Source: a virus (taxonomy: Duplodnaviria > Caudoviricetes). Taken from it: a stretch of DNA of 64,000 nucleotides. Positions 31,908 through 61,988 of this stretch are shown one piece after another. Every line of letters begins with the position of its first letter. The first letter of the stretch is position 1. The notes below the pieces were generated by a model, which was not told the DNA's origin, made no database searches, and worked only from the letters and a program-made list of their open reading frames with translations. The translations under genes and the position numbers were made by a program. The stretch spans positions 20,634-84,633 of IMG/VR virus record IMGVR_UViG_3300021387_001083; one strand, 5' to 3'.

Positions 31908-32141
31908 TTAGTTAGAGTTTATTAAGTTTTCGACATCAGTATCTACGAAGAAAAAGCTTGAATGACTTCCGTAATCTATCATTGTTTGATTAGGAAGAGT
32001 CCCTATAAGTCTCATATAGGGACTTTCCACATTTCTTACTGCCAAAAAGTCATCTATAGCTTTAAAAACTTCTTTTTTGTCATTCACATCTGTCTTTACA
32101 ACAATTGTTTTATCAAATCTGTCTTTAAAAGTTATAGTCAT
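31908..32141 (-). CDS. Hypothetical protein
   Basis: 77-aa ORF tightly packed in the operon. Confidence 0.6.
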   Translation of the reverse strand: MTITFKDRFDKTIVVKTDVNDKKEVFKAIDDFLAVRNVESPYMRLIGTLPNQTMIDYGSHSSFFFVDTDVENLINSN

Positions 32142-34036
32142 TAGAATAGCGTTAATTGTATGTTTTCCAAATCATTTATTATTTTTTTACATTGTCCTAT
32201 ATAATACTGATAGTTAATGTTATCAGGCAATTTGTAATCTTTAGGTATAACATTCAACAACGTTACACCAAAATTTGAATTGACTTTTATTTGTTTTCCG
32301 GTATCTTTATCACGTTTGATAAGAAAGTCTCCATTTGTAGAATAATAAAATCTGTTGATATGATTTATATTCTGTTTGGTTCCAATATCTACAGCGAATT
32401 GTTTTCCTATTTTTTGATAAGATATAAAGTCATGTATGTCGTTGCATTCTTCTATCGTCTTTTCAACAGGAATTCCATCTGCGAAATATTTTATCAACGC
32501 TTTTGGTATTATAAGACAATCGAGTCCTTTACCAAGTTGTGGATAATCGATAAACATACCTTTAGTTTCGATAAGATCTTGGTTTTTGGTTTCAGAATAT
32601 CCTTTTTTTATTGCTATATAATCATTTACAGCGTATTGAATGAATTTTTCATACTGATCGTCTTCAAAAACAAGTCTGCTGATTTTTTCGAATTCTGTTT
32701 TAGTATTTTGATATTCAGTATATTTATCTTTTTTTAAAATCATATAAAGTCCGTCAGTATTATATTGAATTACCCTACAGTCTGTAGTATCTATCAAACG
32801 TTCTGCGAGCATTAACAATATAAGCTGACCATTCATTCGGATTCGCATTACGTCTTCAGGGCTATATAACCAGCTATGTTGACTTTGCATAAGGCCTGTT
32901 ACCGCATTTAATGCCAGTTTTAAGGTCTTGTCTTTCAATTTGTTACCATTATGTTTAGCTTCAATACGTTCTTTTTTAATATTACTATAAGTCGTTAAAA
33001 ACTCTTTACCTAAATGTTTTGGTATAAGCCCCCACTCAATCAACAATGTCGGATATAGCGACGCAGCGTCGACGTGAAGAAGATATTCATCATTTTTTGG
33101 TATTATTATTTCCGGAGTATTTTGGCTGTGTAAACCTCCGACACCAATAGATATGACTGTACCATGAAATAAAAATTTCTTGTTCCATCCATCTATTCCA
33201 GGACTTACAATCAGAGTTTTCATTTCTTTGAGAAGCTCTTGCAATACAGGTGTCTTAAACTCTACAATAGGTAATATTACTTTATTGAGTTCAACCATGT
33301 CACAAGGACTTCTCAAATCTTTGATGTCATCCCAAGTTTTACCAGTATCTTGTAGATATTTTGTTTTAAGTATCTCTTTACCGATAGACACTCCATCCAT
33401 AGAGAGTACATCAACACCATATTCTTCTTCAATACCAAGTCTTAAATCAATGTCTTTTTTACATCTGTCGAGTAATTCGACAGTGTTCATTACATCATGT
33501 AAATTATACTCAAGTACTCTGTCAATATCACTTTCTTTGACTGGTTTGTTGAAATCGCCTTCAAATTCATCAACATTTTCGACTTGCATTGTCACTTCCA
33601 TCTCTTTCAGTCCTACCCTAAGTTTTGATGAAAACAACATTGTAAGTAAATCCATTGATTTGAAGTTGTTGGCATATTTCCATTTTTTCCAGCCATCAGT
33701 TGTTTCTGAATTAACTATCAAATTACTGAGATTAAAAATCTCTTTCGTTATGATTTTCCAATCATAAAAATCATTTTGCCAAACGTTAAATTTGTCAATG
33801 ATGAAATTTATGATTGGATCGTCATAATGTTTGTTATTATACCCACACCATAGAAACTTCTTGCAATCTATAAAACTGTATTTAATGTCTTTTAAAGTCT
33901 TATGATAATCAACTCTTTCAGATATTTCAAAAACAAGTTTTTGATTTCGTTCCGTATGATAACAGGTACAGGTAAATAAATTAGGAAAACATTCTATATC
34001 ATATACAACAACAGGTAAATTCTTAATTAACATCAA
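32141..34036 (-). CDS. polB: Family B DNA polymerase
   Basis: Exonuclease YDIECF and GYNNKHYD. Polymerase motifs DAASLYPT, KLALNAVTG and YNTDG. Confidence 0.9.
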   Translation of the reverse strand: MMLIKNLPVVVYDIECFPNLFTCTCYHTERNQKLVFEISERVDYHKTLKDIKYSFIDCKKFLWCGYNNKHYDDPIINFIIDKFNVWQNDFYDWKIITKEIFNLSNLIVNSETTDGWKKWKYANNFKSMDLLTMLFSSKLRVGLKEMEVTMQVENVDEFEGDFNKPVKESDIDRVLEYNLHDVMNTVELLDRCKKDIDLRLGIEEEYGVDVLSMDGVSIGKEILKTKYLQDTGKTWDDIKDLRSPCDMVELNKVILPIVEFKTPVLQELLKEMKTLIVSPGIDGWNKKFLFHGTVISIGVGGLHSQNTPEIIIPKNDEYLLHVDAASLYPTLLIEWGLIPKHLGKEFLTTYSNIKKERIEAKHNGNKLKDKTLKLALNAVTGLMQSQHSWLYSPEDVMRIRMNGQLILLMLAERLIDTTDCRVIQYNTDGLYMILKKDKYTEYQNTKTEFEKISRLVFEDDQYEKFIQYAVNDYIAIKKGYSETKNQDLIETKGMFIDYPQLGKGLDCLIIPKALIKYFADGIPVEKTIEECNDIHDFISYQKIGKQFAVDIGTKQNINHINRFYYSTNGDFLIKRDKDTGKQIKVNSNFGVTLLNVIPKDYKLPDNINYQYYIGQCKKIINDLENIQLTLF

Positions 34037-34376: not shown

Positions 34377-34833
34377 AGAAGTTACTGCCTAAAAGTCCAT
34401 GTATTGATACACCTGTATCTTTCTTTATTATACCAAATGTTTCTGTGAAATCATTTAATATAAAAGAATCAGACATCTGAATACCATTACATTGGAATTC
34501 TATATCTTCTATGGATTTACTTCCAACTTCTCCAGCAATACCGACAACTTTCTTTGTTTTTTGATTATGATGTTTTTTGAACAAAGTGTTATAAACATTT
34601 TTGTCAATGTACGACATCACGCTACCAGTATCAAGAATCATGTTAAATGTCTTGTTCTGTATTACAATAGGTATTATCGGTAAACCTGTAAGTCTTAAAG
34701 CTTCGTTGAAAGAGACAGTATTTTTTACTTTTTCAAATTCATTTTTATAGAATTTGAAATGGCTGTGGTTGAATAACAGTAATCCAATTAAAACCAGTAT
34801 TATAATTCCAGTAATAATTGGAACTGCTGTCAT
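34270..34833 (-). CDS. Retropepsin-like aspartyl protease with N-terminal transmembrane helix
   Basis: Hydrophobic VPIITGIIILVLIGLLLF, catalytic MILDTGS, C-terminal GLLGSNFF. Confidence 0.8.
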   Translation of the reverse strand: MTAVPIITGIIILVLIGLLLFNHSHFKFYKNEFEKVKNTVSFNEALRLTGLPIIPIVIQNKTFNMILDTGSVMSYIDKNVYNTLFKKHHNQKTKKVVGIAGEVGSKSIEDIEFQCNGIQMSDSFILNDFTETFGIIKKDTGVSIHGLLGSNFFDAHNYIIDYNNKSFYARHSSDKKDSKLLSLFKKT

Positions 34834-37097
34834 TCGTCTATATCAGTTTGTTGTACATAAGATAACATACACACAGAATATCCACACGAAGAACAATGCT
34901 TACAGCCACCTTCGTTGATTATAGGACTTCCACATTCTGGACAGATTTCTGCCGAAGCTTCTTCTGTAGAATTGTATTTGTTGAGTACTCTTATCATTGC
35001 TGCGGTAAAAGTACTAATCATTGGATTTGTCTTTTTAAGAGTTTTTACAATATATTTTATATCGGCTCCATGTCTTAAACCCAACGAAGCCAGTAATGTA
35101 GCAACTCTTTCGGGACTTTCCTCATCAATTATGGCAATATTGCTGTCATACTTAAGTCCGATATAATCATCATCTTTACAGTCAGAAGTCCAAGTGTATA
35201 CACCTTTCTTTACTTTTGTAATAACACCTTTTCCAAAAGCTACCTTTGTTTTCTCATCTGTGGCTTTGGCAAAAATTTCATATGGTTTACCCTCATAAAG
35301 GCCTATGAAAATATTAAAAAGCTGCTTGTTTGCTACGACTTGATACCATTCAGCTTCAAGTGTTTTAGGTCTTTTTGGAGCTTGTCTGCCAGATTCCATT
35401 TTTGTAGTGCTGTTTGTAGACAAGATTGCATCTCTACTACCGTCAACATAAATAGTCATACCTTTACAACCAAGAGACCAAGCATTAAGATATAAATCTT
35501 CTATTTGTTCTATCGTGGTTTCTTTTGGAAGATTTACAGTACTTGATATTGCAGTATCTACATGATTATTTATAGCTGCTTGTAATTTAACTCTTTGCTT
35601 GTATGGAATTTGTGCAGCAGTTATAAAATAATCTGGAACAGCTAAGGTATTTCCAAATTTATCATACCAATCTTGCAATGTTTTGACATGTACAGTATAT
35701 TCTGTATCTTTGCCATTCAAAGAAACAGTTCTTCTGACATAGCTTGTTGCAAACCAAGGCTCAATTCCACCAGAAATATTCAACATTGTACCAATGCTTC
35801 CTGTAGGAGCTATACTTATCAATGTTGCGTTTCTAAGACAGTTCTTTTGTTTATAATAATTTATCTTTTCTGGTGCAACGTTTGTTTTGATAAATTCACT
35901 ATCCCATACTTCAGGGGAATAGCCAGGGAAACTACCTCTTTCTTCTGCAAGGTCTACACTTGCCGACAAGGCTTCATTGAAAATGAACTTTGTCAAGTCT
36001 GAAAGAAAAGAAATGCTTGCTTCAGAACCATAGACAAGTCCTAATGTTGCAAACATATCTGCAACACCCATAAAACCAATGCCTATATTTCTCCATTTCA
36101 AAGAGGCTTCTTTCTGTTCAGTCAATGCATGGTTGCCCTTATTCTCATCGATAAGATCATCCATAGCTTTGACAATGACTGCAATATCTTTCGACAACTG
36201 CTGTCTGTCTACATAAGCAGTAGATTCGAATGGATTTACAACATATTCTAACAGATTGATACTGCATAAATTACAGCAACCATGCTTAGGTAAAGGTTGT
36301 TCGCCACATGGATTAGTAGTCTCAATTTTATATTCAGGAATCAGTTCCATCATATTATAGTTACGAAGCCTGTTTACATAAAGAATACCTGGTTCTGCAT
36401 GATTTCTTGCATACTCACATATCTTTTTGTAAACATCTATTGGACAGACTTCATATTCAACAATATGACCAGAATAATTGCGTTTTACAGTAACTGTCTC
36501 TTTAATTCCCTCAATGTAATATTTCTGGACATACGTCATAAATTCATCATCAATCTCTACAGATAAATTACAATTGTTTATCTTGTTATTGTTGGATTTT
36601 ACTGTAATGAAATCGAGTATGTCTTTATGCCAGACATCAAGAGAAACCATCAATGCACCGCGTCTTGCGTTACCTTGGCTTATAGCACCCGTAGTGGTGT
36701 TAAACATCTCCAAGAACGGCAATATGCCATCCGAAGTGTAATTTTTATTTATTGGTGTCCCTTTAGGTCTTATGTGAGATAAAGATACACCTTGTCCACC
36801 TTGGGCCTGAAATGTTTTAGCAATCTGTGTGTTTGTAAGTAGTATATCATCCAAAGAATCTTCAACAAAACCTCTGGAATAACAATTAGAGTTAGTACCT
36901 TGATTAAGGCCTCTGTTTGCAAGAGTTCGTCCGCCGAAAAGAAATTTTCTCTTTTTTATAAGAGCTTTAACTTCTTTATTTTTGCCTGATACTCTATCAA
37001 GCCATTCATCAAAGCTTTCTTCTTTGTATCGATATTTCCTTTTCCAAATATCAATACCAAGTACATTATCATTTCTTAACCATTCTTCTATGGTCAT
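34830..37097 (-). CDS. nrdJ: Class II (adenosylcobalamin-dependent) ribonucleotide reductase
   Basis: FLFGGR, GGQGVSLS.IRP, TNPCGEQPL, CNLCSINL, IAPTGSIG and C-terminal CPECG..EGGC..C..CG. No small-subunit gene nearby. Confidence 0.9.
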   Translation of the reverse strand: MTIEEWLRNDNVLGIDIWKRKYRYKEESFDEWLDRVSGKNKEVKALIKKRKFLFGGRTLANRGLNQGTNSNCYSRGFVEDSLDDILLTNTQIAKTFQAQGGQGVSLSHIRPKGTPINKNYTSDGILPFLEMFNTTTGAISQGNARRGALMVSLDVWHKDILDFITVKSNNNKINNCNLSVEIDDEFMTYVQKYYIEGIKETVTVKRNYSGHIVEYEVCPIDVYKKICEYARNHAEPGILYVNRLRNYNMMELIPEYKIETTNPCGEQPLPKHGCCNLCSINLLEYVVNPFESTAYVDRQQLSKDIAVIVKAMDDLIDENKGNHALTEQKEASLKWRNIGIGFMGVADMFATLGLVYGSEASISFLSDLTKFIFNEALSASVDLAEERGSFPGYSPEVWDSEFIKTNVAPEKINYYKQKNCLRNATLISIAPTGSIGTMLNISGGIEPWFATSYVRRTVSLNGKDTEYTVHVKTLQDWYDKFGNTLAVPDYFITAAQIPYKQRVKLQAAINNHVDTAISSTVNLPKETTIEQIEDLYLNAWSLGCKGMTIYVDGSRDAILSTNSTTKMESGRQAPKRPKTLEAEWYQVVANKQLFNIFIGLYEGKPYEIFAKATDEKTKVAFGKGVITKVKKGVYTWTSDCKDDDYIGLKYDSNIAIIDEESPERVATLLASLGLRHGADIKYIVKTLKKTNPMISTFTAAMIRVLNKYNSTEEASAEICPECGSPIINEGGCKHCSSCGYSVCMLSYVQQTDIDE

Positions 37098-37103
37098 TAA
37101 AAA

Positions 37104-38174
37104 TTACAATTTATTTAAATAATTTGTTAGATTGTTTGGTTCAGTGACACTTATACCTTTGGGTACCAATGGCTTATTTTCAATATAATATTTCAACTCC
37201 AATGCTACATCTTCAGGATCTTTAAAGATAAATTTCTGTGTTTCACCATATTCAAGTGTACCATATTCAAAACAGTCGTCAAATTGCCATATCAATGGTA
37301 TCATTGAAAATTTGCCTATAACGATAAATTGAAACGGTAATATTTTGAAAGATTTGAAATAGTCTGAGTTTTTTATGACTTCTTTCAATATTCTTACATA
37401 AAGTCTTGCTTGCATATGATAGTTGTACTTGTTTACAGATTTATAGAAATTCCATTCATATTCGGAAGATGTTTTTAAGTCAGCTATTTGTATTGTCTTG
37501 TTATAATGGTCAACAATAACACAATCAAACATTCCTTTATATTCTATTCCTTTAAGGAATGCTGTAAATTTAAGCTGATAAAACTTATCTATACCTGTTT
37601 CAATGGATTTGTTGAAATAGAATTTCGTAGTATTCGACTCTTTAAGTTTATAGTAAACCTCCATGACTTTTTGATAAAAATCAGGATCCAGAAGTTTCCT
37701 ATCTCCCACAGTTCTTAAAAAGTCAAAATAATCCGATCCTTGAGTTATTATTTTTTCATATCTCGTAAGATCTTTCCAATTTGGTTGCCATTGAAATGCA
37801 TCACAAGTATCTATGATGTCATCCAAAGAGATGTCTGGAAGCCGTACATTTGAATTTTTCTTTGATTCAATTGTATATAAAGCTTCAACAATATTCTTTA
37901 CTGTTTCTGAAACTTTTTTGAAATCAGCAACAATAAACTTTTTGTTAAAAGCATCAATACCTTCTGTGATAAGACAATCTACAGCAGCACCAAACGATAG
38001 ACTTTCAGTATTTACATGCTCTTTTAAAGAATCTAATTTTTCAAAGCCTTCTCTGTTGAACTTCGAAATCATACTGAAATCCATAGCTGGGTATTTTCGA
38101 TATTCTTCTTCAGTCCAGTCTTTAGCCAGAGAAGACAGATCAGTATTCACACTCGTCGTCATCATCGTCTCCAT
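37104..38174 (-). CDS. PD-(D/E)xK (RecB-like) exonuclease
   Basis: LSFGAAVDCL, KGMFDCVIVDH..IQIADLKTS, YHMQARLY. Confidence 0.8.
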   Translation of the reverse strand: METMMTTSVNTDLSSLAKDWTEEEYRKYPAMDFSMISKFNREGFEKLDSLKEHVNTESLSFGAAVDCLITEGIDAFNKKFIVADFKKVSETVKNIVEALYTIESKKNSNVRLPDISLDDIIDTCDAFQWQPNWKDLTRYEKIITQGSDYFDFLRTVGDRKLLDPDFYQKVMEVYYKLKESNTTKFYFNKSIETGIDKFYQLKFTAFLKGIEYKGMFDCVIVDHYNKTIQIADLKTSSEYEWNFYKSVNKYNYHMQARLYVRILKEVIKNSDYFKSFKILPFQFIVIGKFSMIPLIWQFDDCFEYGTLEYGETQKFIFKDPEDVALELKYYIENKPLVPKGISVTEPNNLTNYLNKL

Positions 38175-38421
38175 AAATAAGTTGTTCCTTTACATTAGCA
38201 CAAGCTAAATTTGCTATAAGTTGATGAAAAGAACGATAATAAGGATTCTCCCAAGGATCTTTATCCGTGTCTTTTAATATCTTATATATTTCACCCTGTT
38301 TTATTCTGGCTATTGTTTCGGCTTCTGCATAACGTTTTTCTACAATACAAGTCTTCAGTTTGTCATAATCTTGCATTGTAACAGCAGGTTTTAAAGCCTC
38401 AAGTATTTCCAACGTAGTCAT
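38140..38421 (-). CDS. Hypothetical protein
   Basis: 93-aa ORF with acidic C-terminus, coupled to its neighbours. Confidence 0.6.
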   Translation of the reverse strand: MTTLEILEALKPAVTMQDYDKLKTCIVEKRYAEAETIARIKQGEIYKILKDTDKDPWENPYYRSFHQLIANLACANVKEQLIYGDDDDDECEY

Positions 38422-38858
38422 TGTAATTGTTTTAAATGTTTAACAAATTCTGTAACTTCTGATATAGAATTTATTCTTAAAATGATATAGCGTTCTTTAT
38501 CTTCAAATTTTTCAAACAGTTTCCTGAAAAGTTTGAATTTATAAGGAAAGACATCATTTTCAAAACCCTTGACTTCAATAATAATCTTGTAATTGTTATA
38601 CTCTATGATAAAATCAGGAGTATATGTCCAATCACGCAATTTTGCAGAGTTGTTTTTGAAACAGTGTTTTTTCTTGTTATAAACCCAAAAAGGCACTGTA
38701 GGTTTAAACCCTTCAAACAATAAAAAAGTCTGAGCTTCATATTTTGGTTGAAACCCAGACTCTTTCAATTTTTCATAGACTTTTTTTTCAAGAATGCTTT
38801 TGAATTGAATTCCGTCAAAAAAAGTCATAGTAGCATTTTTGATCTTTTTGTTTATCAC
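38418..38858 (-). CDS. PD-(D/E)xK endonuclease (DUF1064/resolvase-like)
   Basis: DGIQFKSILE, YTPDFII, IIEVKG. Confidence 0.8.
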   Translation of the reverse strand: MINKKIKNATMTFFDGIQFKSILEKKVYEKLKESGFQPKYEAQTFLLFEGFKPTVPFWVYNKKKHCFKNNSAKLRDWTYTPDFIIEYNNYKIIIEVKGFENDVFPYKFKLFRKLFEKFEDKERYIILRINSISEVTEFVKHLKQLQ

Positions 38859-40105
38859 GAGTAAGTTATAAAATCACTAAGCATAATATTGTCTTCTATG
38901 GTTGTATCACTGCCTGCAAAATCTTCATTGATTTTCTGCATTTGCGAAACATAATAGAGTTCTGTGATACGTTCTTTCATGTATGTGCTTTGTTTATACT
39001 GGTATATTTCGTCGCATATTGCATGAAAATAAGGTGTTGCAATTTCTCTATGTCTGATTTTATCACGTAATGTATCAATATCAACAGGACCAAATTTCTT
39101 GGTTAAAACTTCTGCATATTGAAGCAATGCATTAAGCAACATAATCCAAGTGCAGACTTTCGTAAAATTATACGTAGGTCTTAAGAATCGAAATTCTATT
39201 GTTTTCGGAGATTTATAACAAAGAATATTTATAAAATTGATCCAATAATATCTTGTATTGATTTGCCATTTTCTATTGTGTTCGATATCATTGGGATGAT
39301 TTTGATAAAGATCTCCAAAGAAGTTATTACCAACAAAGTAGTTGTAGAATTGTTCGAATGTTTTAAGTTCTTCTGCGCTTGGCAATGATCTGCAATAACT
39401 TTTCCCATTCTTCTTATAGTTCTCCGTATTGAACACATATTTGTTGGTTAATTTTTCGATTTCTCCTTTTTCTTGAAGCCAATAACATAATGTATACAAT
39501 GTGAATATATAATCAGGTTCAACAGGAAAACCACCGAAATGGATATGAAGTGCACATTCTTTATTATAGGCTGTATATTTTCGTAGAAGATTCAATTGCT
39601 GTTTCACTAAATTCAAACCTCTACTTTTAGCCAGCACTATAGTGGAATATTCGTTTCCTGAAATAGAACCATCTCTAAGAGGAATAAGACCACTTAAAAA
39701 ACATTGGTCTTCAGGAATGCAACCCATTGAGGTTTCATATTCAAGACCAAATGTGTATTTAAGTTTCCCAGAACCTATGAATTTATAATTCGTCGTAGGT
39801 TCTTCTTTGCCATTAAAGATGTTGAAGTGGTCTACTGCTTCATATACCTGTTCAAACCTATATGGATATACATGTGTACCTTTATATACAGTATGTCTTA
39901 AAATATCGGATTTTAAAAATTTGTTTTTCAAATAATACCGACCTGATATAGTAGAGAAAAACACAATATTTTTTACGGCTTCATAACTGTCTGCTATATA
40001 AACTACTTCATCAAAATTGTCACAGATTTCAATATGTTTATATTCAGGCTCTTTTAAAATACCAAATACTGGTTGATCATCTTGTGTATTTACTATACCT
40101 CTCAT
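38855..40105 (-). CDS. Putative amidoligase (glutamine synthetase/glutamate-cysteine ligase fold)
   Basis: FGLEYET, RDGSISGNEYST, CALHIHFG, RYYWINF and TIEFRF motifs. Confidence 0.8.
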   Translation of the reverse strand: MRGIVNTQDDQPVFGILKEPEYKHIEICDNFDEVVYIADSYEAVKNIVFFSTISGRYYLKNKFLKSDILRHTVYKGTHVYPYRFEQVYEAVDHFNIFNGKEEPTTNYKFIGSGKLKYTFGLEYETSMGCIPEDQCFLSGLIPLRDGSISGNEYSTIVLAKSRGLNLVKQQLNLLRKYTAYNKECALHIHFGGFPVEPDYIFTLYTLCYWLQEKGEIEKLTNKYVFNTENYKKNGKSYCRSLPSAEELKTFEQFYNYFVGNNFFGDLYQNHPNDIEHNRKWQINTRYYWINFINILCYKSPKTIEFRFLRPTYNFTKVCTWIMLLNALLQYAEVLTKKFGPVDIDTLRDKIRHREIATPYFHAICDEIYQYKQSTYMKERITELYYVSQMQKINEDFAGSDTTIEDNIMLSDFITYS

Positions 40106-41526
40106 CCCAAATAAAATTTTCTTAATTCACCAAATTGTATTCTGTCTTTTTTATTCCAAATAGCTTTGAAATCATTTTCTGTAGAACAACGTGTCCATTC
40201 ATTAATCACCTTGCCTTCGGAAATGGTGTATTGTTTTCCGCTGAGAACTTTGTGAAGGACACCTGAATATATCGTCTGATCAAATACATCACCGACAACA
40301 AAAGGTGATTCTGGCTCAGTAGAATCTTCTCTTAAAGGATAAGCCGAAAGATAATACAACAAATCCGGATATGCGTAGATAAAATCATCAAGATTCACAT
40401 TAGACTTTTTTCTTAATGCGTTAAGAAAATTGAAACAATTTTTGTTTTTCAACAAAATACCGTCCCAAAAATGCAATTCATACAAAATATCTTTCGTTGA
40501 ATCAGCATGAAGTCTTCCAAATTTGTTAACCGAATACGTTCCAGTGACATTCTTACCATCCATTATATACCTATCACGTCTATTAGCATAATAAATATAT
40601 TGTTTGGTATTTGTTTCGTTGTAGGAACTTATTAAACCAGAAGATTCAGGGAATACATCATCGTCATCGTCATCATACCAATCATAGTGTGGTTTAACGA
40701 TTGCTTTTGTTGGAGTAGTTTGTTTTGATGACGAGTAATAAGATGAATAATTTTCATAGCCATTTGTAAACCTATATTGTCCTGACTGACTTACAGAACT
40801 TCTGTCATATTCTCGTATGCAATATAATTCAGAATTCTTTAATTCAATAAGTATATTTGAAGTTATAGTGTTTACCGTAGCATTAGGTTTAAAAGCCTTA
40901 AAGTATGTAGGTATTGAAGAAAAGACAAAACTCTTGTTGATATAAGTAAAATAGAAAGGTCTTTCTTCTTTAACATCGGAATTAGTATATTCATATTCTC
41001 TAGAACTGCCCCGAAACATCAATATCTTTGTAGGATTTGAGCGATAGTCGACAATGAAAAACACAGATCCTCCATAATATTCAGATAAACAATCATAACC
41101 AGCATTATAGAAAATATTGGCCATGACTTGGGAATCTGTCATACCTGTGATATCAATATTGGGGATGTATTTTTTTGCCAATTCACCATAATTATAGATC
41201 GTTCCATTATGTATAACTACAAAATCAGGCTTATTGTTCTTATATATAACTACAGGTTGTGCGGTTTTTTTAGAGACAGAACCTACGGAAGCTTTTCTGC
41301 AATGGCCAAGTGCAATAGTTGAAAATTTGGTATTTTTTAGAATTTTACTTGTTTGCAGAAAATCATAGAAATATTTCTCTTTCTCAGTTCCGTATTCTAA
41401 AGCGCCATCTATGAACACACCACAAGAGTCGCCTCCACGTGCATCATTCAATATGCCAAGAACATTAAATAATTCGTTATTGAATGGTTGTTTTTTAGCA
41501 TTTATAATTCCAAATATTCCACACAT
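40102..41526 (-). CDS. Class II (Ntn) glutamine amidotransferase
   Basis: N-terminal MCGIFG, RGGDSCG, LGHCRKAS, HNGTI and TDSQV. Confidence 0.85.
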   Translation of the reverse strand: MCGIFGIINAKKQPFNNELFNVLGILNDARGGDSCGVFIDGALEYGTEKEKYFYDFLQTSKILKNTKFSTIALGHCRKASVGSVSKKTAQPVVIYKNNKPDFVVIHNGTIYNYGELAKKYIPNIDITGMTDSQVMANIFYNAGYDCLSEYYGGSVFFIVDYRSNPTKILMFRGSSREYEYTNSDVKEERPFYFTYINKSFVFSSIPTYFKAFKPNATVNTITSNILIELKNSELYCIREYDRSSVSQSGQYRFTNGYENYSSYYSSSKQTTPTKAIVKPHYDWYDDDDDDVFPESSGLISSYNETNTKQYIYYANRRDRYIMDGKNVTGTYSVNKFGRLHADSTKDILYELHFWDGILLKNKNCFNFLNALRKKSNVNLDDFIYAYPDLLYYLSAYPLREDSTEPESPFVVGDVFDQTIYSGVLHKVLSGKQYTISEGKVINEWTRCSTENDFKAIWNKKDRIQFGELRKFYLG

Positions 41527-41527
41527 C

Positions 41528-42328
41528 TTATATCATTTTTTTTTGATTTTTTAAAATATTGTATGTACGACATACACTCATTGCTTTTTCTTTGCATCCT
41601 TCGTTAATGATTTTTTGTGTTTCATCTTCTGGAAACAATTCTTTATTTTCAACAAAAGCGTTATAAGCAGCCATAGCTTGTGTGAAAGCAAATTCCATCA
41701 ATTCGTCATTTGCAATAAAAGCTCCTGAAAGCACTCTGTATTCGAGGCCGTATGGACATAATCTGAAGCTTCCGGCTTTACCGTAAAGCTGACGTCTTTC
41801 GGAATCGTCATCAAACAATACAGAAGGAATTCCGACATACATATCCATATAACGTACAAGCATCAATGAATCGTATGTATTAGGTCTGTCATAACCTAAA
41901 TGAATATGGCAGCCTGTCGAACGTAGGTCTGTGGATTCACCCTTTGGTTTTGGGTTTGGTCTTTCAGTATATACATTATAATCGACAGAACATCCAAAAA
42001 GCTTAGCTTCTTTGCTTTTAAGCTGGTCTTTGTCAACATGTGCTGAAGCTTTGCAAAGAATGTCATAATCAGGATTTGCTTTTTGTACAAAGTTTCTGAT
42101 ATAATCCTTCATATAATTCATATGATGTAACCATTCTTCAAGCGTTGTACATGGTGGAATGTTGAATTCTGCCAAAATATTGTCTATTTCAAGGCCGAAA
42201 CCTTCAGGCATATCATCGCTTCTATAAGGGTTACCTTTTTCACCGGGAATAATACCAATGGACGATATTATTTTTTCATTCCGTTTGTCATAAATAAACA
42301 GTTCGGGATCTGCACCTATTGTTATCAT
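41528..42328 (-). CDS. phiEco32-like COOH-NH2 ligase type 2
   Basis: TIGADPELF, DNILAEFNIPP, FGCSVD.N, RSTGCHIH.G, R..YGKAG.FR..PYG.EYR.LS. Confidence 0.85.
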   Translation of the reverse strand: MITIGADPELFIYDKRNEKIISSIGIIPGEKGNPYRSDDMPEGFGLEIDNILAEFNIPPCTTLEEWLHHMNYMKDYIRNFVQKANPDYDILCKASAHVDKDQLKSKEAKLFGCSVDYNVYTERPNPKPKGESTDLRSTGCHIHLGYDRPNTYDSLMLVRYMDMYVGIPSVLFDDDSERRQLYGKAGSFRLCPYGLEYRVLSGAFIANDELMEFAFTQAMAAYNAFVENKELFPEDETQKIINEGCKEKAMSVCRTYNILKNQKKMI

Positions 42329-42330
42329 TT

Positions 42331-42987
42331 TTATATTAAAGACTTTAAAATGTTATTGAATGTTTTTATTGTTTGTGAGTTTAAATCCATCATCTCAGGA
42401 TGTCCTTGAATAGCAAGGAATTTTGGATTGTTTTGTTTATGAAACAAAATTACTTCTGGTTCACCAAAAGTATTTATTTTTGATATTTTTTCAACATCAC
42501 CATCGAATTTGTCACCAGCATAATAGCCTTTGCTTCTTTGTTCTTCAGATATATAAAGTAATGTGTAATCATCTGGATCCATATCATAAGGATACATCAT
42601 CTGATGATGCAAAGAAGGAATATCCAATTCCAAAGGCAGTTCTTCGTTATCAGATACATTAATGATGGAATGAGTGCTACCAATCCAGTGGTTGTCGACA
42701 TCTTGTACCAGCAAACCACCATTCAGCGCACATGCTAACTGTGCTCCTCTACATATGCCGAGACCAATCTGGTCATTTCTCATTTTATGGTAACATTCAA
42801 GTTCATATTTATCACGAGCTTCAGTGAAGTATGTAGTTTTATGAACTTTACAACCATATAATGCAGGATTTATGTCCTCGCCTCCAGTGAACAATACTAT
42901 GTCTGCGTCTTCAATGGATTTTACTATTTCCAGCGATTCAATCCATCTTGAATAACTTTTACTGAAACCAACTACAAATACTTTCAT
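42331..42987 (-). CDS. Class I glutamine amidotransferase / peptidase C26 (PuuD-like)
   Basis: FTGGEDINP, nucleophile elbow GICRGAQ, SLHHQ, IQGHPE. Confidence 0.85.
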   Translation of the reverse strand: MKVFVVGFSKSYSRWIESLEIVKSIEDADIVLFTGGEDINPALYGCKVHKTTYFTEARDKYELECYHKMRNDQIGLGICRGAQLACALNGGLLVQDVDNHWIGSTHSIINVSDNEELPLELDIPSLHHQMMYPYDMDPDDYTLLYISEEQRSKGYYAGDKFDGDVEKISKINTFGEPEVILFHKQNNPKFLAIQGHPEMMDLNSQTIKTFNNILKSLI

Positions 42988-44492
42988 TTTTTATAAAACG
43001 CTTTAAAATTATCCTTATAATAAGTTAATCTTTTATCAAAATTATTGATCCAAAAACTATAATTATATGCCATATATTTATAGTCATTATCAATAAAACC
43101 AAATGCATTGTTTTTGATACGTCCGTAAAACTCACTAAATTTAGTCAGACTGGCACTGTAGTTTTGAATACTATCGTCATCAGATTCTTCCAATGCTTCA
43201 AGATCAAGTTCTTCTTTATCGTCTTCTATATCTTTCAAATATGTTTCCAGTTTGTTATAAAACTGTGTTTTTGAAAAATGGTTTAGAAGAGAAATGTCAT
43301 CATACTCGCTACAAGCAAAGAAATCGTACTCGCGTTCAGAAAAAAGTATTTCCTTTGTAGTAAAATTTATAATATTCAATATGTTTATTATGGAGTAATG
43401 GTTATAACCATTTTTGATAAGCTGCAATGCATCACTTAACATAAAATTATAAGGAAACATATAAGCATATCTAATCAACGTAATCAATAATTTATGCCAA
43501 AATACATTTGCATTTATCGTTACGTTGAAACGATAACCAACAAGATAATTCTTATCGTCAACATCTGTTATTTCATATTGAAAATCATGAACTTTTCTTA
43601 GTTTTTCAAAATATATCTGTATGTCGCTTTTAGAAAAGATACACCAGTTACGAGTTGGATTTGTATTGCTGTATTTTGTAGGAGTATCTATATAATACGT
43701 TATTTTATAGTCTGCAGTCTGATCTACATATGGAAACTCTTCTTTAAATAAATTACCAAAACACCAAGTGTCATGGTATACTTTTGAGAACCGATCGTAT
43801 GTACTGGTTGTGGACCATTTGCTGTTACTCATTCGATGACCAAAGTCTATATATTTGGCACAATATTTGCCAAAATATGACAAATATCTATATATCAACG
43901 AATTACAAAGCAAAACTGCGTTACTGTTTGTAGGCATTATTTCTGGATGACCTTGGATACATAAACATGAAGGCCTATCATCATTTATATTTTCATAAGC
44001 AAAAATTTCTGGTCTGTTATCTATTGTTGAAATATACAATATACGACCACGTTTGGTAATTCTTCTTTCATCTAACATCTGATGATGTGTAGATGTAATT
44101 TCCAGTTCGTCAGGCAAACTGCCAATAAAGGGTGAATAACGTCTTATAGTATGTGTTCCAGTTATAGCATGTCCCGGCACATCCTGTATAAGTTTTGAAC
44201 CATTCATAACAGCAAGAAACTGAGCTCCACGACATATACCTACACACAATTGTCTTTCACCATCTACTGAATTAAAAACAGATTGCTCATATTTATCCCG
44301 TGCTAAATTAGAATACGTTGTAGGATCTTTTTTCGCACCATACAATTCAGGAGACACATCTTCACCACCAGTAAACAATACTATATCTGCATCTTCTAAA
44401 CGGTCTACAATTTTGTGGTTTTCTATAAATTTCGCATAATTGGTGTCGCCACCAACAACATAAACTTTTACATTATCTATTAATTGTATCAT
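42984..44492 (-). CDS. Class I glutamine amidotransferase / peptidase C26 fused to an unknown C-terminal domain
   Basis: FTGGEDVSP, GICRGAQ, STHHQ and IQGHPE in the first ~200 aa. The remaining ~290 aa resemble ORF 44473-45327. Confidence 0.8.
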   Translation of the reverse strand: MIQLIDNVKVYVVGGDTNYAKFIENHKIVDRLEDADIVLFTGGEDVSPELYGAKKDPTTYSNLARDKYEQSVFNSVDGERQLCVGICRGAQFLAVMNGSKLIQDVPGHAITGTHTIRRYSPFIGSLPDELEITSTHHQMLDERRITKRGRILYISTIDNRPEIFAYENINDDRPSCLCIQGHPEIMPTNSNAVLLCNSLIYRYLSYFGKYCAKYIDFGHRMSNSKWSTTSTYDRFSKVYHDTWCFGNLFKEEFPYVDQTADYKITYYIDTPTKYSNTNPTRNWCIFSKSDIQIYFEKLRKVHDFQYEITDVDDKNYLVGYRFNVTINANVFWHKLLITLIRYAYMFPYNFMLSDALQLIKNGYNHYSIINILNIINFTTKEILFSEREYDFFACSEYDDISLLNHFSKTQFYNKLETYLKDIEDDKEELDLEALEESDDDSIQNYSASLTKFSEFYGRIKNNAFGFIDNDYKYMAYNYSFWINNFDKRLTYYKDNFKAFYKK

Positions 44493-45327
44493 AAAACATG
44501 TTATTAAATTTTTGTATTATATCCTGCATTGAAGCGTCAATGATATTTTTATATAAATTCAATTTTCCATTTCGTATCTTAGCAAATGCAATAGAATATT
44601 CTTCTTCAATTTCAGCATTTGTATGTTTGATTATAGTATTTTTAGTATCACTAAAATAGTCATTTATCTTACAATATTCTGAAACACATGTCATTAGTTC
44701 ATCTTTACTTAATTTTTTTGGTATTCTGCTAAGATGTTTCGTCATTGTGTTATGTAGATTGAAGAATAAAGAGTGCCCACTTAACATACTATTGAAATCA
44801 TAGAACAATATGGAATTGATGTAAAGTATTTGAAAAAGCTGTTCTTTTTCTGTTTCAGGATGGTTTTTAAAAAATTGCAATGCTGAATACAATACTCCAG
44901 AGAGTGGAAATTCATACAAATATCTGACACTTGTCAAAAATATCTTATGACAGAGTGGTGTACCTTTCAGATTATTGATAATCAAACTATAACCGTAATC
45001 ATTATTCAGTTTAAGTTTATATGTAAATGAAAAATAGTTTTTTAATATGTTCAGATATTTTTCTATATCTTTACGTTTAAAAAAGCATACATTATTACGG
45101 TTATCTATATGTGCCGGTGTTATTAATCTTATATTATATGATGATTTGATTATTATATCGTCGGGACAATCTATAAATGCAGTAAACAATTTCGAAAAAC
45201 ACACACTATTATCTGCAATAAGCCTTTCATTTCCATCCACATTTAGCTTTACATTATATATTGTGTGAAAATCACCTGAATTTAGTTTCCGTGATTCAAG
45301 TTTAGCTAAATCTTTCTTTGTTATCAT
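44473..45327 (-). CDS. Hypothetical protein, paralog of the C-terminal domain of 42984-44492
   Basis: Shared blocks CF..LF, C.F...DI..Y...L......Y and HK...T..RY.Y.FP. Confidence 0.65.
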   Translation of the reverse strand: MITKKDLAKLESRKLNSGDFHTIYNVKLNVDGNERLIADNSVCFSKLFTAFIDCPDDIIIKSSYNIRLITPAHIDNRNNVCFFKRKDIEKYLNILKNYFSFTYKLKLNNDYGYSLIINNLKGTPLCHKIFLTSVRYLYEFPLSGVLYSALQFFKNHPETEKEQLFQILYINSILFYDFNSMLSGHSLFFNLHNTMTKHLSRIPKKLSKDELMTCVSEYCKINDYFSDTKNTIIKHTNAEIEEEYSIAFAKIRNGKLNLYKNIIDASMQDIIQKFNNMFYDTINR

Positions 45328-46138
45328 CTATTATTTTTTTTAACATTTTAGTGTATTGTATGATACCGACTTCACCAAGTGCTGGAGCGCTATTGGTTTC
45401 AAGAATTATAAATTTCGGGGATTCTTTTTTTGTCTGTACTTTAACATCAACAGCTGCAATATCAAGTCCTACTGCATTTTTTGCTGCTATACAGGCATCT
45501 ACAATATCATTCCAGTTTAAAGGCTTGTCAAAAATAGGATTTTCTTCAAGAATCCATACAGAATTCGATTCATGGCGATGCCAACGGACATCTGCATCAT
45601 TTTTAAGCATTTTTCTGCAGGTATAGAAACATCCGTCATTAGTTATATGCAGTCTGTATTCTTTTGAATAAGTGTAATATTTTTCAAACACATAATTTTC
45701 ATAATGGTTGTAAGTTTGAAACCATTTTTCGAGATCTTCTTCTGTTTCTATAAAATAGATATTGTTACCTTTTGAAGAATGTTTATGTTTGATGATTATT
45801 CTTTTCCATTCTTTCAATTTCCCATAAACAAGATCTTTAAATGTCTGGACGTCTTCTTCTGGAGTTTTGATGATATATTCTGCAGTAGGTACTCCAGCCG
45901 CAACAAACAGCTGTTTCATGACTATTTTGTCATTTGAATTGGCACATGCTTCAGGAGAATTTATTTCAAAATAACCTTCTTTGCGTGTAATTGCATTTGT
46001 CGGCGTAGTACTACCCATTCTATAAATTACACCATACGGCACTTCTATAGATTTTAATGCTTTGCATGATGTATTTTTAGATCTTATTATTAGTTTTTTT
46101 GTACGCATAATAACAAAAAGGGGTATGATTTTCACCAT
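45302..46138 (-). CDS. ATP-grasp ligase (RimK/YheC-like); probable start at MRTKK
   Basis: DKIVMKQLF...VPT, IIKHKHSSKG, FEKY, EYRLHI, AAVDV and ILETNSAPAL. Confidence 0.85.
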   Translation of the reverse strand: MVKIIPLFVIMRTKKLIIRSKNTSCKALKSIEVPYGVIYRMGSTTPTNAITRKEGYFEINSPEACANSNDKIVMKQLFVAAGVPTAEYIIKTPEEDVQTFKDLVYGKLKEWKRIIIKHKHSSKGNNIYFIETEEDLEKWFQTYNHYENYVFEKYYTYSKEYRLHITNDGCFYTCRKMLKNDADVRWHRHESNSVWILEENPIFDKPLNWNDIVDACIAAKNAVGLDIAAVDVKVQTKKESPKFIILETNSAPALGEVGIIQYTKMLKKIIDDNKERFS

Positions 46139-46164
46139 ACCCCATTGACATTTTGTGATTCTTA

Positions 46165-46377
46165 TTAGAGATTCTTCAATGCGTGATATACGTTTCTTGA
46201 AAGATCTTTTGTGTTTGTACGCATATAACTTTCCAAAAGATTCTTGTTTTCAGGATACATATTATGTGCCATATGCAGCAATGTGGTTCTACTGCAAGAT
46301 GAACATTTGTTACTTTCTGGGGTTTCCCCATATCTTTCAACATATTTCTTAAAAAGTTTTCCGTATTTCATTTTCAA
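46165..46377 (-). CDS. Small hypothetical protein
   Basis: 70-aa ORF filling the primase to ATP-grasp gap. Confidence 0.4.
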   Translation of the reverse strand: MKMKYGKLFKKYVERYGETPESNKCSSCSRTTLLHMAHNMYPENKNLLESYMRTNTKDLSRNVYHALKNL

Positions 46378-47350
46378 AAAGTTTTAAAATTGTTTTTTTA
46401 AATTCGTTTTTATTATTGATTTTTTTGTAAAGGTCACTGACATCTTTGCCGCCATCAAATTCAGGTAGGATTATGTTTTTAAAGCCTGTTTTCCCAGCCA
46501 AAGATTCACCATCTTTTAAGCCTGCAGTGTCATTATCAAACAAGATAAATATGTGCTTAAAACGGGACTTAAGCACGTTTTGGGCAGTGTTGCTTATACT
46601 ATAGCCTTCACCTTGTACAGCTATACTTGGTATTCCTGTATTAGCCCAAAGACAAAGCGCATCTTTCATTGAAGAACAGATACATAAAATCTCGCCAGTT
46701 AATGGAATTTTTGTCCATAAACTTATTACACTCATATCATGTTTGTTTGTCCATTTGAAACCTTTGGTGTTAAAAGGTTGATATATTTTCAGTGTCGTTT
46801 TACCTTCCTTGAATTCGGCGTATGCGTATGCATGTTTATCGGCCCTGACGGCATTTCTGGCTCCGTTCCTGACAAAGATTATATCGGATATTGGATAAAT
46901 ATCTGCATATTTAAGCCAATCTAAAGAAATACCGTAAGAATTCCAATATTCCAAATCGTATGATTCCCAGTTCCTTGTCTTACACAATAATTCTGTATCA
47001 GTGCTTCTGTAACATTTTGTCGTTTTGAATTTTTTTGACACAGTACTTTCAAAAGACATGTTTGTCATATCTTTTCTTATCTTTGAAAGCACTTCATTAA
47101 AAGGCAATCCCCATAAACGTTTCAAAAACTCTAAAAGGTCACCTTTTTCGCCAGTGGAAAAATCTTTCCATCTGACATTGTTATTTACAAAATATATACA
47201 GAATGACGGATGTTTGTCAACTCTGAAAGGACTATTTATAAGACAAGGTAGTTTTGTTATTCCTGTGTAATAATATAATATTTTTAAAATGGAATCTGCG
47301 TTAAGAATATCTTCTTTATTCAACGACAGTTCTCCTTCACTGAAAATCAT
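46349..47350 (-). CDS. dnaG: DnaG-type DNA primase (degenerate Zn-finger plus TOPRIM)
   Basis: SPFRVDKHPSF..WKDFSTGEKGD, KIYQP, SSMKDALCL, QGE, LFDNDTAG and KDVSD. Confidence 0.85.
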   Translation of the reverse strand: MIFSEGELSLNKEDILNADSILKILYYYTGITKLPCLINSPFRVDKHPSFCIYFVNNNVRWKDFSTGEKGDLLEFLKRLWGLPFNEVLSKIRKDMTNMSFESTVSKKFKTTKCYRSTDTELLCKTRNWESYDLEYWNSYGISLDWLKYADIYPISDIIFVRNGARNAVRADKHAYAYAEFKEGKTTLKIYQPFNTKGFKWTNKHDMSVISLWTKIPLTGEILCICSSMKDALCLWANTGIPSIAVQGEGYSISNTAQNVLKSRFKHIFILFDNDTAGLKDGESLAGKTGFKNIILPEFDGGKDVSDLYKKINNKNEFKKTILKLFENEIRKTF

Positions 47351-53713: not shown

Positions 53714-53871
53714 TGTTCTTTTATAAACGTTGCTTTTATTGTTGTGTCTTCATAACCGTCTTTTAAATTTAATTGAAACTCACCAGTGTTTATTTGTGAC
53801 TCCAAAAGTTTCATTTCATTAATAAGATTTTCATCTTTAGTGGTTACTTTAATTGTTATTATTGCTTTCAT
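53710..53871 (-). CDS. Small hypothetical protein (not in ORF track)
   Basis: MKAIITIKVTTKDENLINEMKLLESQINTGEFQLNLKDGYEDTTIKATFIKEQ, stop overlaps the next ATG (ATGA). Confidence 0.5.
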   Translation of the reverse strand: MKAIITIKVTTKDENLINEMKLLESQINTGEFQLNLKDGYEDTTIKATFIKEQ

Positions 53872-60494: not shown

Positions 60495-60541
60495 ATGCTA
60501 TCTTTTGTCCAGTTGAAGCTAAATTTGTACTATCAAATTAG

Positions 60542-60612
60542 TTGTGGATAGTAGAGTCGAACTACTATTACCTCATCCAAAGTGAGGTGCATTGCCGTTA
60601 TGCTAATCCACA
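60542..60612 (-). tRNA. tRNA-Gln (anticodon TTG), CCA not encoded
   Basis: TGTGGAT/ATCCACA acceptor, GCAT/ATGC D-stem, CCTCA-CTTTGGA-TGAGG anticodon arm, AGTAG-TTCGACT-CTACT T-arm. Confidence 0.9.
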
Positions 60613-61968: not shown

Positions 61969-61988
61969 AATTATTTAATTTAATTTAG

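Follow-up and report, generated by a model that had tools for sequence, protein, structure and literature searches.

A Crassvirales version of the phiEco32/LUZ24-type phage amide-ligase cassette carries an undescribed domain family, X

Introduction

What do seven adjacent genes for amide ligases and glutamine- or gamma-glutamyl-processing enzymes make for a crAss-like phage, and is their arrangement more than chance? The literature view (PMC5498523, PMC10580990) is that homologous phage cassettes make unusual gamma-glutamyl or peptide links, with no known product; the original prediction, that these enzyme families co-occur in phiEco32-like loci without a known product, agrees with both papers. 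Few phage enzyme sets lacking a known product are as widespread as this cassette, which occurs in hundreds of podoviruses. A large uncultured branch of ruminant-gut crAss-like phages carries it at a fixed site of the replication module and has added a conserved, unannotated protein family, here called X. We analyzed the cluster in the window, the whole 64,000-nucleotide stretch of viral DNA under study.

Results

The predicted cluster of seven tightly coupled genes at 38855-46138 proved to be real. All of its ORFs in the ORF listing were co-directional on the minus strand (Table 1), and the junctions, taken in order from the ATP-grasp gene, measured -26, -20, -4, +2, +1 and -4 nt, indicating tight coupling. 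Annotation of the flanks confirmed the setting proposed for it, between a primase and the nucleases, RNR and PolB. The 68-aa ORF next to the primase had counterparts of 28-38% identity at the same position in four related loci (L004-L007) and a weaker one in phage cr108_1; it was assigned no family match and lacked a hydrophobic segment. Hydrophobic segments were likewise found in none of the cluster proteins, which are soluble. Since a terminator-like hairpin covers the listed ATG of the ATP-grasp gene and the closest homologue (locus L001) has 268 aa, the true start is probably 46108, which gives a protein of the same length.

Table 1. Positions of the cluster genes and surrounding features in the window
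Feature	Position	Strand	Remarks
RimK-like ATP-grasp ligase (P0001)	45302-46138	(-)	278 aa as listed
Free-standing X domain protein (P0002)	44473-45327	(-)	284 aa
C26/GATase-I + X fusion (P0003)	42984-44492	(-)	502 aa
Free Peptidase_C26/class-I GATase (P0004)	42331-42987	(-)	218 aa
COOH-NH2 ligase type 2 (P0005)	41528-42328	(-)	266 aa
Ntn class-II glutamine amidotransferase (P0006)	40102-41526	(-)	474 aa
Amidoligase_2 (P0007)	38855-40105	(-)	416 aa
Primase	46349-47350		flank
Resolvase-like endonuclease	38418-38858		flank
Exonuclease	37104-38174		flank
RNR	34830-37097		flank
PolB	32141-34036		flank
ThyX	53849-54706		
68-aa ORF between primase and ATP-grasp gene	46165-46371	(-)	position conserved in relatives
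Terminator-like hairpin, 10 bp (5 G-C), then TTTTTGTT (T-run)	46120-46143	(-)	covers listed ATP-grasp ATG

Pfam and PHROG matches agreed with every domain originally assigned. The ATP-grasp protein matched a RimK/S6-glutamyl-ligase PHROG (phrog_2599, 9e-28), with Pfam RimK and ATPgrasp_ST just under their cut-offs. Aligned to D-Ala-D-Ala ligase and alpha-L-glutamate ligase, it retained the Mg-binding LETN motif, and orthologues were detected in 12 related crAss-like loci (1e-49 to 1e-165) and in Cellulophaga phage phi14:2 (2e-55). The fusion protein P0003 consists of a Peptidase_C26/GATase-I domain at residues 6-204 (Pfam Peptidase_C26, 2.5e-15 at residues 27-184) and a second X domain at residues 203-501; the ~300 residues beyond the C26 domain matched no Pfam or PHROG model. 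Its C26 domain is ~28 residues short relative to the family and retains the Cys-His-Glu triad. The free C26 protein P0004 (Pfam Peptidase_C26, 2.4e-14; phrog_7218, 3.9e-30) aligned to Lin1909 (3fij) across the ICRGxQ and QxHPE motifs. C79, H196 and E198 were invariant in 15 C26 sequences, both window copies included, and the nucleophile elbow G-x-C-x-G and the H-P-E of the triad were present.

The COOH-NH2 ligase P0005 (PF14395, 7.7e-12, 45.4 bits against a cut-off of 25; phrog_3815, 6.6e-67) is predicted from its sequence to be an ATP-dependent amide ligase of the glutamine-synthetase (GS)/GCS2 fold. D7, E9, E54, R136, H141, H143, E196 and R198 were invariant in an alignment of 16 homologues from crAss-, LUZ24- and 7-11-like phages and a cyanophage. 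P0007 is a second GS-fold ligase with an N-terminal extension of ~110 residues; it matched PF12224 at 22.3 bits (cut-off 22) and phrog_2443 at 1.6e-13, with E122, D145, E152, H187, H189, E304 and R306 invariant and E124 present in at least 90%. The class-II amidotransferase (GAT-II) P0006, which begins with MCGIFG, matched the Pfam GATase_6/7 models (GATase_6 at 1.7e-14). Aligned to PurF residues 1-141, it displayed the N-terminal Cys and the GHxR, HNGxxxN and DS glutamine-site motifs; its C-terminal domain (~230 residues) had no Pfam match, and this half is conserved in cr108_1. The alignments thus left the catalytic signatures intact in the C26 enzymes, the ATP-grasp protein, GAT-II and both GS-fold ligases, so that the original prediction withstood its check on catalytic residues.

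X is an undescribed domain family of 250-285 residues and the sole new part of the cassette. Its members fall into at least 312 representative clusters, none of which is covered by a Pfam or PHROG model. The 284-aa protein had been filed as unknown, which holds in that it belongs to no described family; however, it and the C-terminal half of P0003 are paralogues, a relationship the original prediction missed. X was always found beside C26, in one locus (L014) in the order X-C26-X-C26, and C26-X fusions occurred in seven representative clusters. The C26 domain is degenerate in three of these seven, and those three lineages retain X plus a second, intact C26 gene. Because the family is conserved and linked to C26 through adjacency, tandem duplication and repeated fusion, it offers structural and biochemical studies a concrete new target.

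Across 139 X sequences only C43, R135 and E139 were invariant, with H127, Y138 and P141 nearly so; the same sequences had no conserved Asp or Glu on the X strands, and thus no acidic/His ligand set for Mg/ATP. The C-termini were not conserved. In the predicted structure (pLDDT 90.2), the three best and longest matches were PafA, Dop and a plant glutamate-cysteine ligase, the PafA/Dop matches being weak, and GS/GCS-fold enzymes made up nine of the 50 structural matches listed. PafA and Dop, which act in pupylation, and the glutamate-cysteine ligases are carboxylate-amine ligases of the GS fold, in which helices flank a curved antiparallel sheet, whereas X lacks the catalytic acidic residues of PafA/Dop. 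The best reading of these data is that X is a pseudo-ligase partner of C26. A more specific proposal, which we advance tentatively, is that X is a catalytically re-purposed offshoot of the GS/PafA-Dop fold in an obligate complex with C26, the two forming a new two-subunit gamma-glutamyl-amide hydrolase (substrate-gated) or a glutamine amidotransferase synthase. If true, X would for the first time offer a way to approach the substrate of this cassette, which hundreds of phages carry. X may also be a distant counterpart of orphan proteins in LUZ24-, phiEco32- and 7-11-type cassettes; its fold match to a 290-aa GAP52 protein was weak, and the two orphans of ~290-310 aa encoded ahead of the ligase gene in LUZ24- and 7-11-like phages had no significant sequence similarity to X.

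The order ATP-grasp, X, C26, COOH-NH2 ligase, GAT-II, Amidoligase_2 was found in every long-enough contig among 14 related crAss-like loci, with the primase always preceding the run and UDG or the nucleases following it. Such repetition of gene content and order across 14 loci indicates an arrangement that is more than chance, and the expectation that these genes would be kept together across Crassvirales relatives was borne out. Contaminating DNA may be the source of the contigs found in RNA libraries. A core of four ligase/GAT genes was common to phi14:2, Leptolyngbya phage Lbo-JY46, and LUZ24-like and 7-11-like phages, and the hosts of the cassette comprise Bacteroidota, Pseudomonadota and cyanobacteria.

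Throughout, the ATP-grasp gene was adjoined by a gamma-glutamyl-cleaving enzyme, either GGCT (phi14:2, UFV-P2, ctwe8250 and locus L015) or X plus C26, which lends indirect support to the earlier suggestion of gamma-glutamylation followed by deglutamylation. This adjacency narrows the chemistry to be tested, but does not show what the phage gains from the cassette. A profile built from four phage GGCTs found none in the window, which has two C26 domains instead. With the same profile, L015 was the only X-bearing locus with a GGCT; C26 plus X is therefore not a strict replacement for it.

Discussion

We identify the cluster as the form that the phiEco32/LUZ24-type phage amide-ligase cassette takes in Crassvirales (Steigviridae-like, ruminant-gut). 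The cassette itself is already well known, and published phages with an annotated copy include cr108_1 and phi14:2, both members of Crassvirales. With moderate confidence, we propose that the Crassvirales cassette encodes one cytoplasmic, co-translated pathway of two sub-modules that adds, extends, amidates and removes gamma-glutamyl amide links on a substrate, with X as the partner of C26. In the first sub-module (ATP-grasp, X and C26), the RimK-like ATP-grasp ligase would add glutamate to a substrate as a gamma-glutamyl handle, the C26 cysteine hydrolase would later take off the gamma-glutamyl amide, and X would serve as a catalytically silent, GS-fold-like partner or substrate-recognition subunit of C26. 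In the second (COOH-NH2 ligase, Ntn GATase-II and Amidoligase_2), the two ATP-dependent GS-fold ligases would make further amide bonds, and the Ntn enzyme would deliver glutamine-derived ammonia to an activated carboxylate or trim a gamma-glutamyl amide. The X-C26 pair would have been duplicated in tandem in the window phage, and the inner C26 and X genes then fused. For no member of the cassette is a product, substrate or phenotype known, so each reaction step and its order are inferences of ours, as are the functions given to X and GAT-II and the nature of the product. As our best guess for the latter, we name a cytoplasmic host precursor or else a small soluble compound, amide or peptide-like, that contains glutamate.

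The ligases could instead add to or amidate cytoplasmic stem-peptide precursors of peptidoglycan (UDP-MurNAc-peptide, lipid II) and the hydrolases trim them, changing the cell envelope so that superinfection is blocked or lysis is tuned. ATP-grasp ligation with glutamine-dependent amidation is typical of stem-peptide synthesis, as in Ddl and MurT/GatD, the solubility of all cluster proteins is compatible with action on cytoplasmic precursors, and Privateer and GAP52 carry an endolysin gene upstream, a few genes away. This is also the published reading of the homologous cassette, called a 'peptidoglycan modification cassette' in PMC5498523 and interpreted in PMC10580990 by citing Iyer et al. 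(2009). We nevertheless consider it unlikely, as the literature searched yielded no experimental support, the cassette has no Mur-ligase, transpeptidase, flippase or membrane component, its hosts range over three groups of bacteria, and the crAss-like version sits in the replication module, away from the lysis genes. Somewhat more doubtful, and suggested by analogy with PafA for the ligases and with Dop for de-tagging, is protein tagging, in which the RimK-like ATP-grasp and GS-fold ligases would put glutamate or a short peptide on a host or phage protein, C26 and GAT-II would de-tag or deamidate it, and X would be the target or an adaptor. The RimK/S6-glutamyl-ligase PHROG and the resemblance of X to the pupylation enzymes point to such a role, and Iyer, Abhiman, Burroughs and Aravind, who are said to have predicted the cassette in 2009, reportedly proposed peptide tagging for related ligase systems. 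However, a small acidic carrier resembling Pup or LysW was not found, neither the 68-aa ORF (which has no conserved acidic C-terminus) nor X with its variable C-termini looks like one, and X combines weak PafA/Dop matches with loss of their catalytic acidic residues.

C26 enzymes can also be true glutamine amidotransferases, so X, instead of being passive, could accept ammonia as a synthase domain, making X plus C26 a new two-component amidotransferase. C26 would then hydrolyze glutamine and pass ammonia to X while ATP-grasp would activate the acceptor carboxylate, and the outcome would be mainly amidation of carboxylates, not a cycle of gamma-glutamyl groups. An N-terminal GATase with a C-terminal partner in strict adjacency is the classic class-I amidotransferase pattern (GuaA, PabA/PabB, CarA/CarB), and the invariant and near-invariant residues of X resemble a functional site. 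We judge this arrangement improbable, given that the Peptidase_C26 model gave the C26 domain a far higher score (57 bits) than the GATase model did (27 bits), that the three fusion lineages with a degenerate C26 keep X and a second, intact C26 gene, and that GGCT, which is unable to supply ammonia, fills the equivalent place beside ATP-grasp in relatives. Modification of nucleotides or DNA would account for the replication-module location: a nucleotide or the phage DNA would receive an amino-acid-type adduct (cf. glutamyl-/putrescinyl-thymidine) and so evade restriction, and both the position between primase and UDG/nucleases/RNR/PolB in all crAss-like loci and the ThyX gene fit this scheme. 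It is nonetheless very unlikely. Pfam and PHROG searches of the seven proteins (Pfam at E<=0.01, and E<=10 for unassigned parts) revealed no kinase, glycosylase, transglycosylase, pyrophosphorylase or hydroxymethylase domain. Among the enzymes of 5-hmdU/5-hmdC-based phage DNA hypermodification, the Pfam search of these proteins specifically found no pyrimidine hydroxymethylase, no 5-hm-pyrimidine DNA kinase and no aGPT-type pyrophosphorylase/transferase; the nearby ThyX is a thymidylate synthase of the ordinary kind, UDG is kept beside the cassette in most relatives, and the literature searched does not link the cassette to DNA hypermodification. Nothing here favors a modified nucleotide, one of the products originally listed as candidates.

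The preferred gamma-glutamyl add-and-remove pathway has counterparts in PuuA/PuuD (putrescine), BtrJ/BtrG (butirosin) and EgtA/EgtC (ergothioneine), each pairing an ATP-dependent ligase (GS-like or ATP-grasp) with a gamma-glutamyl-cleaving enzyme (C26, GGCT or Ntn GAT-II), a logic that we infer for the cassette. Unlike these pathways, the cassette has no tailoring enzymes (decarboxylase, oxidase or carrier protein), and the comparison is one of mechanism, not membership.

Among phages, the nearest annotated relative is gp028-gp034 of cr108_1 (Pipoluvirus rarus, NC_055878), at the same place after the primase, with ATP-grasp, two X-family proteins (hhalign 96-98%), C26, COOH-NH2 ligase (52% identical to that of the window), GAT-II (32%) and amidoligase (gp034, 34%); its X genes and amidoligase are annotated just as hypothetical proteins. 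It differs in having two free X genes and one C26 rather than a C26-X fusion, and a UDG after the amidoligase. In the cultured crAss-like Cellulophaga phage phi14:2 (Akihdevirus balticus), g037-g041 occupy the same primase-UDG position and share the ATP-grasp, COOH-NH2 ligase, GAT-II and amidoligase core, but GGCT adjoins ATP-grasp; the X profile found no X in the whole record, and no C26 lies within the cluster locus. The same four enzymes recur in the cassettes of phiEco32/LUZ24/PaP3/tf, RIO-1/PSA-HP1 and 7-11/GAP52/Privateer: Amidoligase_2, Ntn GATase-II, a RimK-like ATP-grasp and a COOH-NH2 ligase type 2, whose LUZ24-, tf- and Privateer-type versions share 35-37% identity with P0005. As in the window, phiEco32/LUZ24-type cassettes also include a gamma-glutamyl-cleaving enzyme and are co-directional among early/replication genes, whereas the window has a different gene order and carries Peptidase_C26 plus X in place of GGCT.

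Organisation and genomic setting of the cluster

The window, a segment of an 84.6-kb virus record, showed crAss-like hallmarks, namely giant proteins (2909 aa and 2947 aa) and a PolB approximately 50% identical to that of the uncultured crAss-like phages cr4_1 and cr10_1. Seven ORFs (P0001 to P0007 in transcription order) followed one another without gaps, with junctions of -26, -20, -4, +2, +1, and -4 nt. Primase, a Sak4-like protein, and a DnaB-like helicase were located upstream; a resolvase-like endonuclease, a PD-(D/E)XK exonuclease, RNR, and PolB were located downstream. The original prediction had described a seven-gene amide-bond synthesis cluster within the replication module, and the ORF, Pfam, and PHROGs results agreed with it in every item of domain content and flanking genes.

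Features of the window and of related loci
Feature	Location	Strand	Assignment or observation	Source
Cluster	window 38855-46138	minus	seven ORFs
P0001			RimK-like ATP-grasp	Pfam + PHROGs
P0002			without family	Pfam + PHROGs
P0003			Peptidase_C26/GATase-I in first 200 residues; remaining ~300 residues without match	Pfam + PHROGs
P0004			Peptidase_C26/GATase-I	Pfam + PHROGs
P0005			COOH-NH2 ligase type 2	Pfam + PHROGs
P0006			Ntn GATase-II	Pfam + PHROGs
P0007			Amidoligase_2	Pfam + PHROGs
Hairpin	window 46143-46120	minus	10 bp, strong, then T-run TTTTTGTT
Small ORF	window 46165-46371	minus	68 aa, basic
Resolvase-like endonuclease	window 38418-38858
ThyX (flavin-dependent thymidylate synthase) homologue	window 53849-54706		N-terminal extension of ~130 residues with a faint dCTP-deaminase-like match (E 0.037)
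tRNA-Gln(TTG)	window 60541-60612	minus	amid small early-type ORFs
tRNA-Leu(TAA)	window 61988-62072	minus	amid small early-type ORFs
Interrupted COOH-NH2 ligase	L005 9158-11106; L006 3217-5165; L014 10587-11937; L016 8978-10903
Degenerate C26-X fusion (P0018)	L007 8001-9440		intact C26 gene directly after
Cassette of Leptolyngbya phage Lbo-JY46	L003 1736-14494		GATase-I, GGCT, COOH-NH2 ligase, C26-like, ATP-grasp, GATase-II, amidoligase, C26-like

The hairpin covered the listed ATG of the ATP-grasp gene. As the closest homologue is 268 aa long, the gene probably starts at 46108, and the hairpin sits between this position and the small ORF after primase. A possible role is that of a terminator or attenuator, setting the ligase cassette apart from the unit that contains primase. 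The small ORF, which overlaps the primase stop, matched no family; it was kept at the equivalent position in related crAss-like contigs with 28-38% identity, and its product is probably helical. Sigma-70 promoter sites were not in excess of shuffled sequence. Near-identical short contigs containing parts of the cluster were present in two sheep-gut RNA libraries and were not counted as transcription, DNA carry-over being possible.

Catalytic residues and predicted localisation

Loss of catalytic residues had been named as evidence against the prediction; on alignment, the predicted active-site residues were kept in all five enzyme families. Both C26 (Peptidase_C26/GATase-I) domains retained the Cys-His-Glu triad, with C79, H196, and E198 invariant in 15 homologues; P0004 was alignable to the Lin1909 structure 3fij, and the fused copy in P0003 carried a deletion of approximately 28 residues. 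P0006 had the N-terminal MCGIFG and was alignable to PurF residues 1-141, with the glutamine-holding Arg, Asn-Gly, and Asp residues conserved, and P0001 kept the LETN magnesium motif. Among the two glutamine-synthetase-fold ligases, P0005 retained D7, E9, E54, R136, H141, H143, E196, and R198, and P0007 retained E122, E152, H187, H189, E304, and R306; its E124 was conserved in at least 90%. The COOH-NH2 ligase and Amidoligase profiles matched no solved relative among PDB sequences. All cluster proteins are probably cytoplasmic, judged from their sequences, because no hydrophobic segment was found in any of the seven.

A Crassvirales-specific domain linked to C26

By blastp (3e-10) and HMM (1.8e-29), P0002 was paralogous to the C-terminal half of P0003, and this shared, previously undescribed domain is referred to as X. 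A word-seeded search with P0002 yielded only seven close relatives. In an exhaustive profile search the family comprised 312 representative clusters at E<=1e-3, or 112 at the stricter E<=1e-10, mostly free proteins of approximately 250 aa. The hypothetical proteins gp029 and gp030 of crAssphage cr108_1 were members (hhalign 96.4% and 98.1%). Across 139 sequences, C43, R135, and E139 were invariant and F44, Y138, P141, and Y259 nearly so, all located in the motif HK..LTW.RYLYE.P.N. Pfam and PHROGs gave no match for P0002 and 40 family members, nor did the X profile against PDB sequences. An identity with DUF7275/DUF7277 proposed by ESM Atlas (score 0.90-0.91, low shared-feature count) was attributed to chance, as Pfam on X members did not confirm it; DUF7275 was also absent in a Pfam scan of the cassette orphans of other phages.

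The AlphaFold model of X from a deep alignment reached pLDDT 90.2 and pTM 0.92. Foldseek against PDB returned nothing at E<=0.001 for either X model. Nine of the 50 matches listed belonged to the GS/GCS-fold superfamily, including the three longest alignments, with scores below the noise guide; in our own judgement, which depends on how many such chains the library contains, these nine are unlikely to be due to chance. When profiles were compared with each other, X matched neither of the two ligases, nor ATP-grasp, C26, or GATase-II; this comparison had little power, since the control pair P0005 and P0007, both of glutamine-synthetase fold, reached only E 0.017. Because the acidic and His ligands of genuine ligases are absent from X, our reading is of a pseudo-ligase or a re-purposed domain instead of a third ligase.

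In the viral structure library (BFVD), X clearly matched cr108_1 and a second crAss-like virus, and weakly matched the fold of approximately 284-290-aa proteins of Aeromonas phages and Cronobacter phage GAP52. Judged by size, the 290-aa GAP52 match is gp028, which belongs to a pair of orphans immediately upstream of the COOH-NH2 ligase gene. Paired orphans of approximately 280-310 aa precede this gene in UFV-P2, Privateer, and GAP52; sequence comparison of X with them was not significant and showed only short shared motifs (LLTSIRYLE in UFV-P2 ORF20 and PCFG in GAP52 gp028), so that they are no more than candidate relatives of X. HMM searches of the UFV-P2, Lbo-JY46, and phi14:2 records did not find X.

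X always adjoined a C26 gene, as X-C26-X-C26 in locus L014, X-X-C26 in cr108_1, and X, C26-X fusion, C26 in the window. The window layout is that of a duplicated X-C26 pair whose two inner genes are fused. The C26-X architecture occurred in seven representative clusters, with a degenerate C26 domain in three (P0018, P0054, and P0092; HMM E 1e-7 to 1e-13, matching residues confined to the first 100-140). The novelty of the cluster is this Crassvirales-specific family together with its duplication and fusion with C26.

Co-conservation and relation to the known cassette

The nearest annotated relative, crAssphage cr108_1 (Steigviridae, Pipoluvirus), carried the same cluster in the same place. In all sufficiently long contigs retrieved through X and then scanned jointly with family profiles, the order was ATP-grasp, X, C26, COOH-NH2 ligase, GATase-II, and Amidoligase_2, with primase before the cluster and UDG, endonuclease, exonuclease, and RNR after it. 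UDG followed amidoligase in most relatives; in the window, the resolvase-like endonuclease came directly after amidoligase, in place of UDG. At least eight metagenome studies, of bovine, sheep, and goat guts, contained DNA nearly identical to window 41000-45500; the phage is therefore a ruminant-gut crAss-like virus.

The COOH-NH2 ligase matched 319 phage records, and phages of Pseudomonas, Escherichia, Vibrio, Aeromonas, and Proteus made up most of these. In four loci the ligase gene consisted of two ORFs separated by an insert of approximately 0.5-1.1 kb, which in L006 contained a LAGLIDADG-like ORF. This pattern, with an uninterrupted gene in the near-identical relative L017, is suggestive of a homing element or mobile intron.

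The cluster belongs to the known phage amide-ligase cassette, which Iyer et al. reportedly predicted in 2009. In papers on podoviruses, a conserved "peptidoglycan modification cassette" among transcription and replication genes has been described in RIO-1, phiEco32, 7-11, PA11, tf, LUZ24, PaP3, and CW02 (PMC5498523), its function yet to be explored (PMC10580990; PMC3890496). In the literature we searched, no product had been demonstrated experimentally for the cassette, and the crAss papers did not mention it. The product question is long-standing and worthwhile, and cultured cassette-bearing phages are better entry points than the present uncultured one. The cultured crAss-like Cellulophaga phage phi14:2 had the cassette core at the equivalent position, with GGCT where the window has X and C26. 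GGCT, one of the features by which the known cassette is recognised, was missing from the window because C26 and X occupy its place; strict replacement was ruled out, as locus L015 carried both. The Lbo-JY46 cassette directly followed PncB (nicotinate phosphoribosyltransferase), two tandem paralogous unknown proteins of 250 aa, and PrsA, and a link of this neighbourhood to NAD or PRPP metabolism is possible.

Proposed pathway and comparison with known systems

Our preferred reading, to which we give about an even chance, is a cytoplasmic pathway in which gamma-glutamyl amide links are added, extended, amidated, and removed, X being a putative partner of C26. Modification of stem-peptide precursors, the published idea, appears rather unlikely for this cluster. 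Tagging of proteins is an improbable outcome of the same enzymes, and we are similarly doubtful that X and C26 together form a true amidotransferase. Modification of nucleotides or DNA is very unlikely; the cluster proteins showed no domain for the handling of nucleic acids.

For the gamma-glutamyl pathway, the data support two sub-modules, A and B; its reaction order and product are what we infer. COOH-NH2 ligase, GATase-II, and Amidoligase_2 stayed together in crAss-like loci and, as sub-module B, could make additional amide bonds as well as amidating an activated carboxylate, or alternatively may add and trim a gamma-glutamyl group in the manner of EgtA/EgtC. The ATP-grasp gene always adjoined a gamma-glutamyl-cleaving enzyme, either GGCT (phi14:2, UFV-P2, ctwe8250, and L015) or X with C26 (the window lineage); as sub-module A, the two would add a glutamyl group and later take it off. 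In BtrJ/BtrG and PuuA/PuuD, a ligase puts on a glutamyl group and a partner enzyme afterwards removes it, and the pairing of ATP-grasp and remover in the window, by analogy, recalls them.
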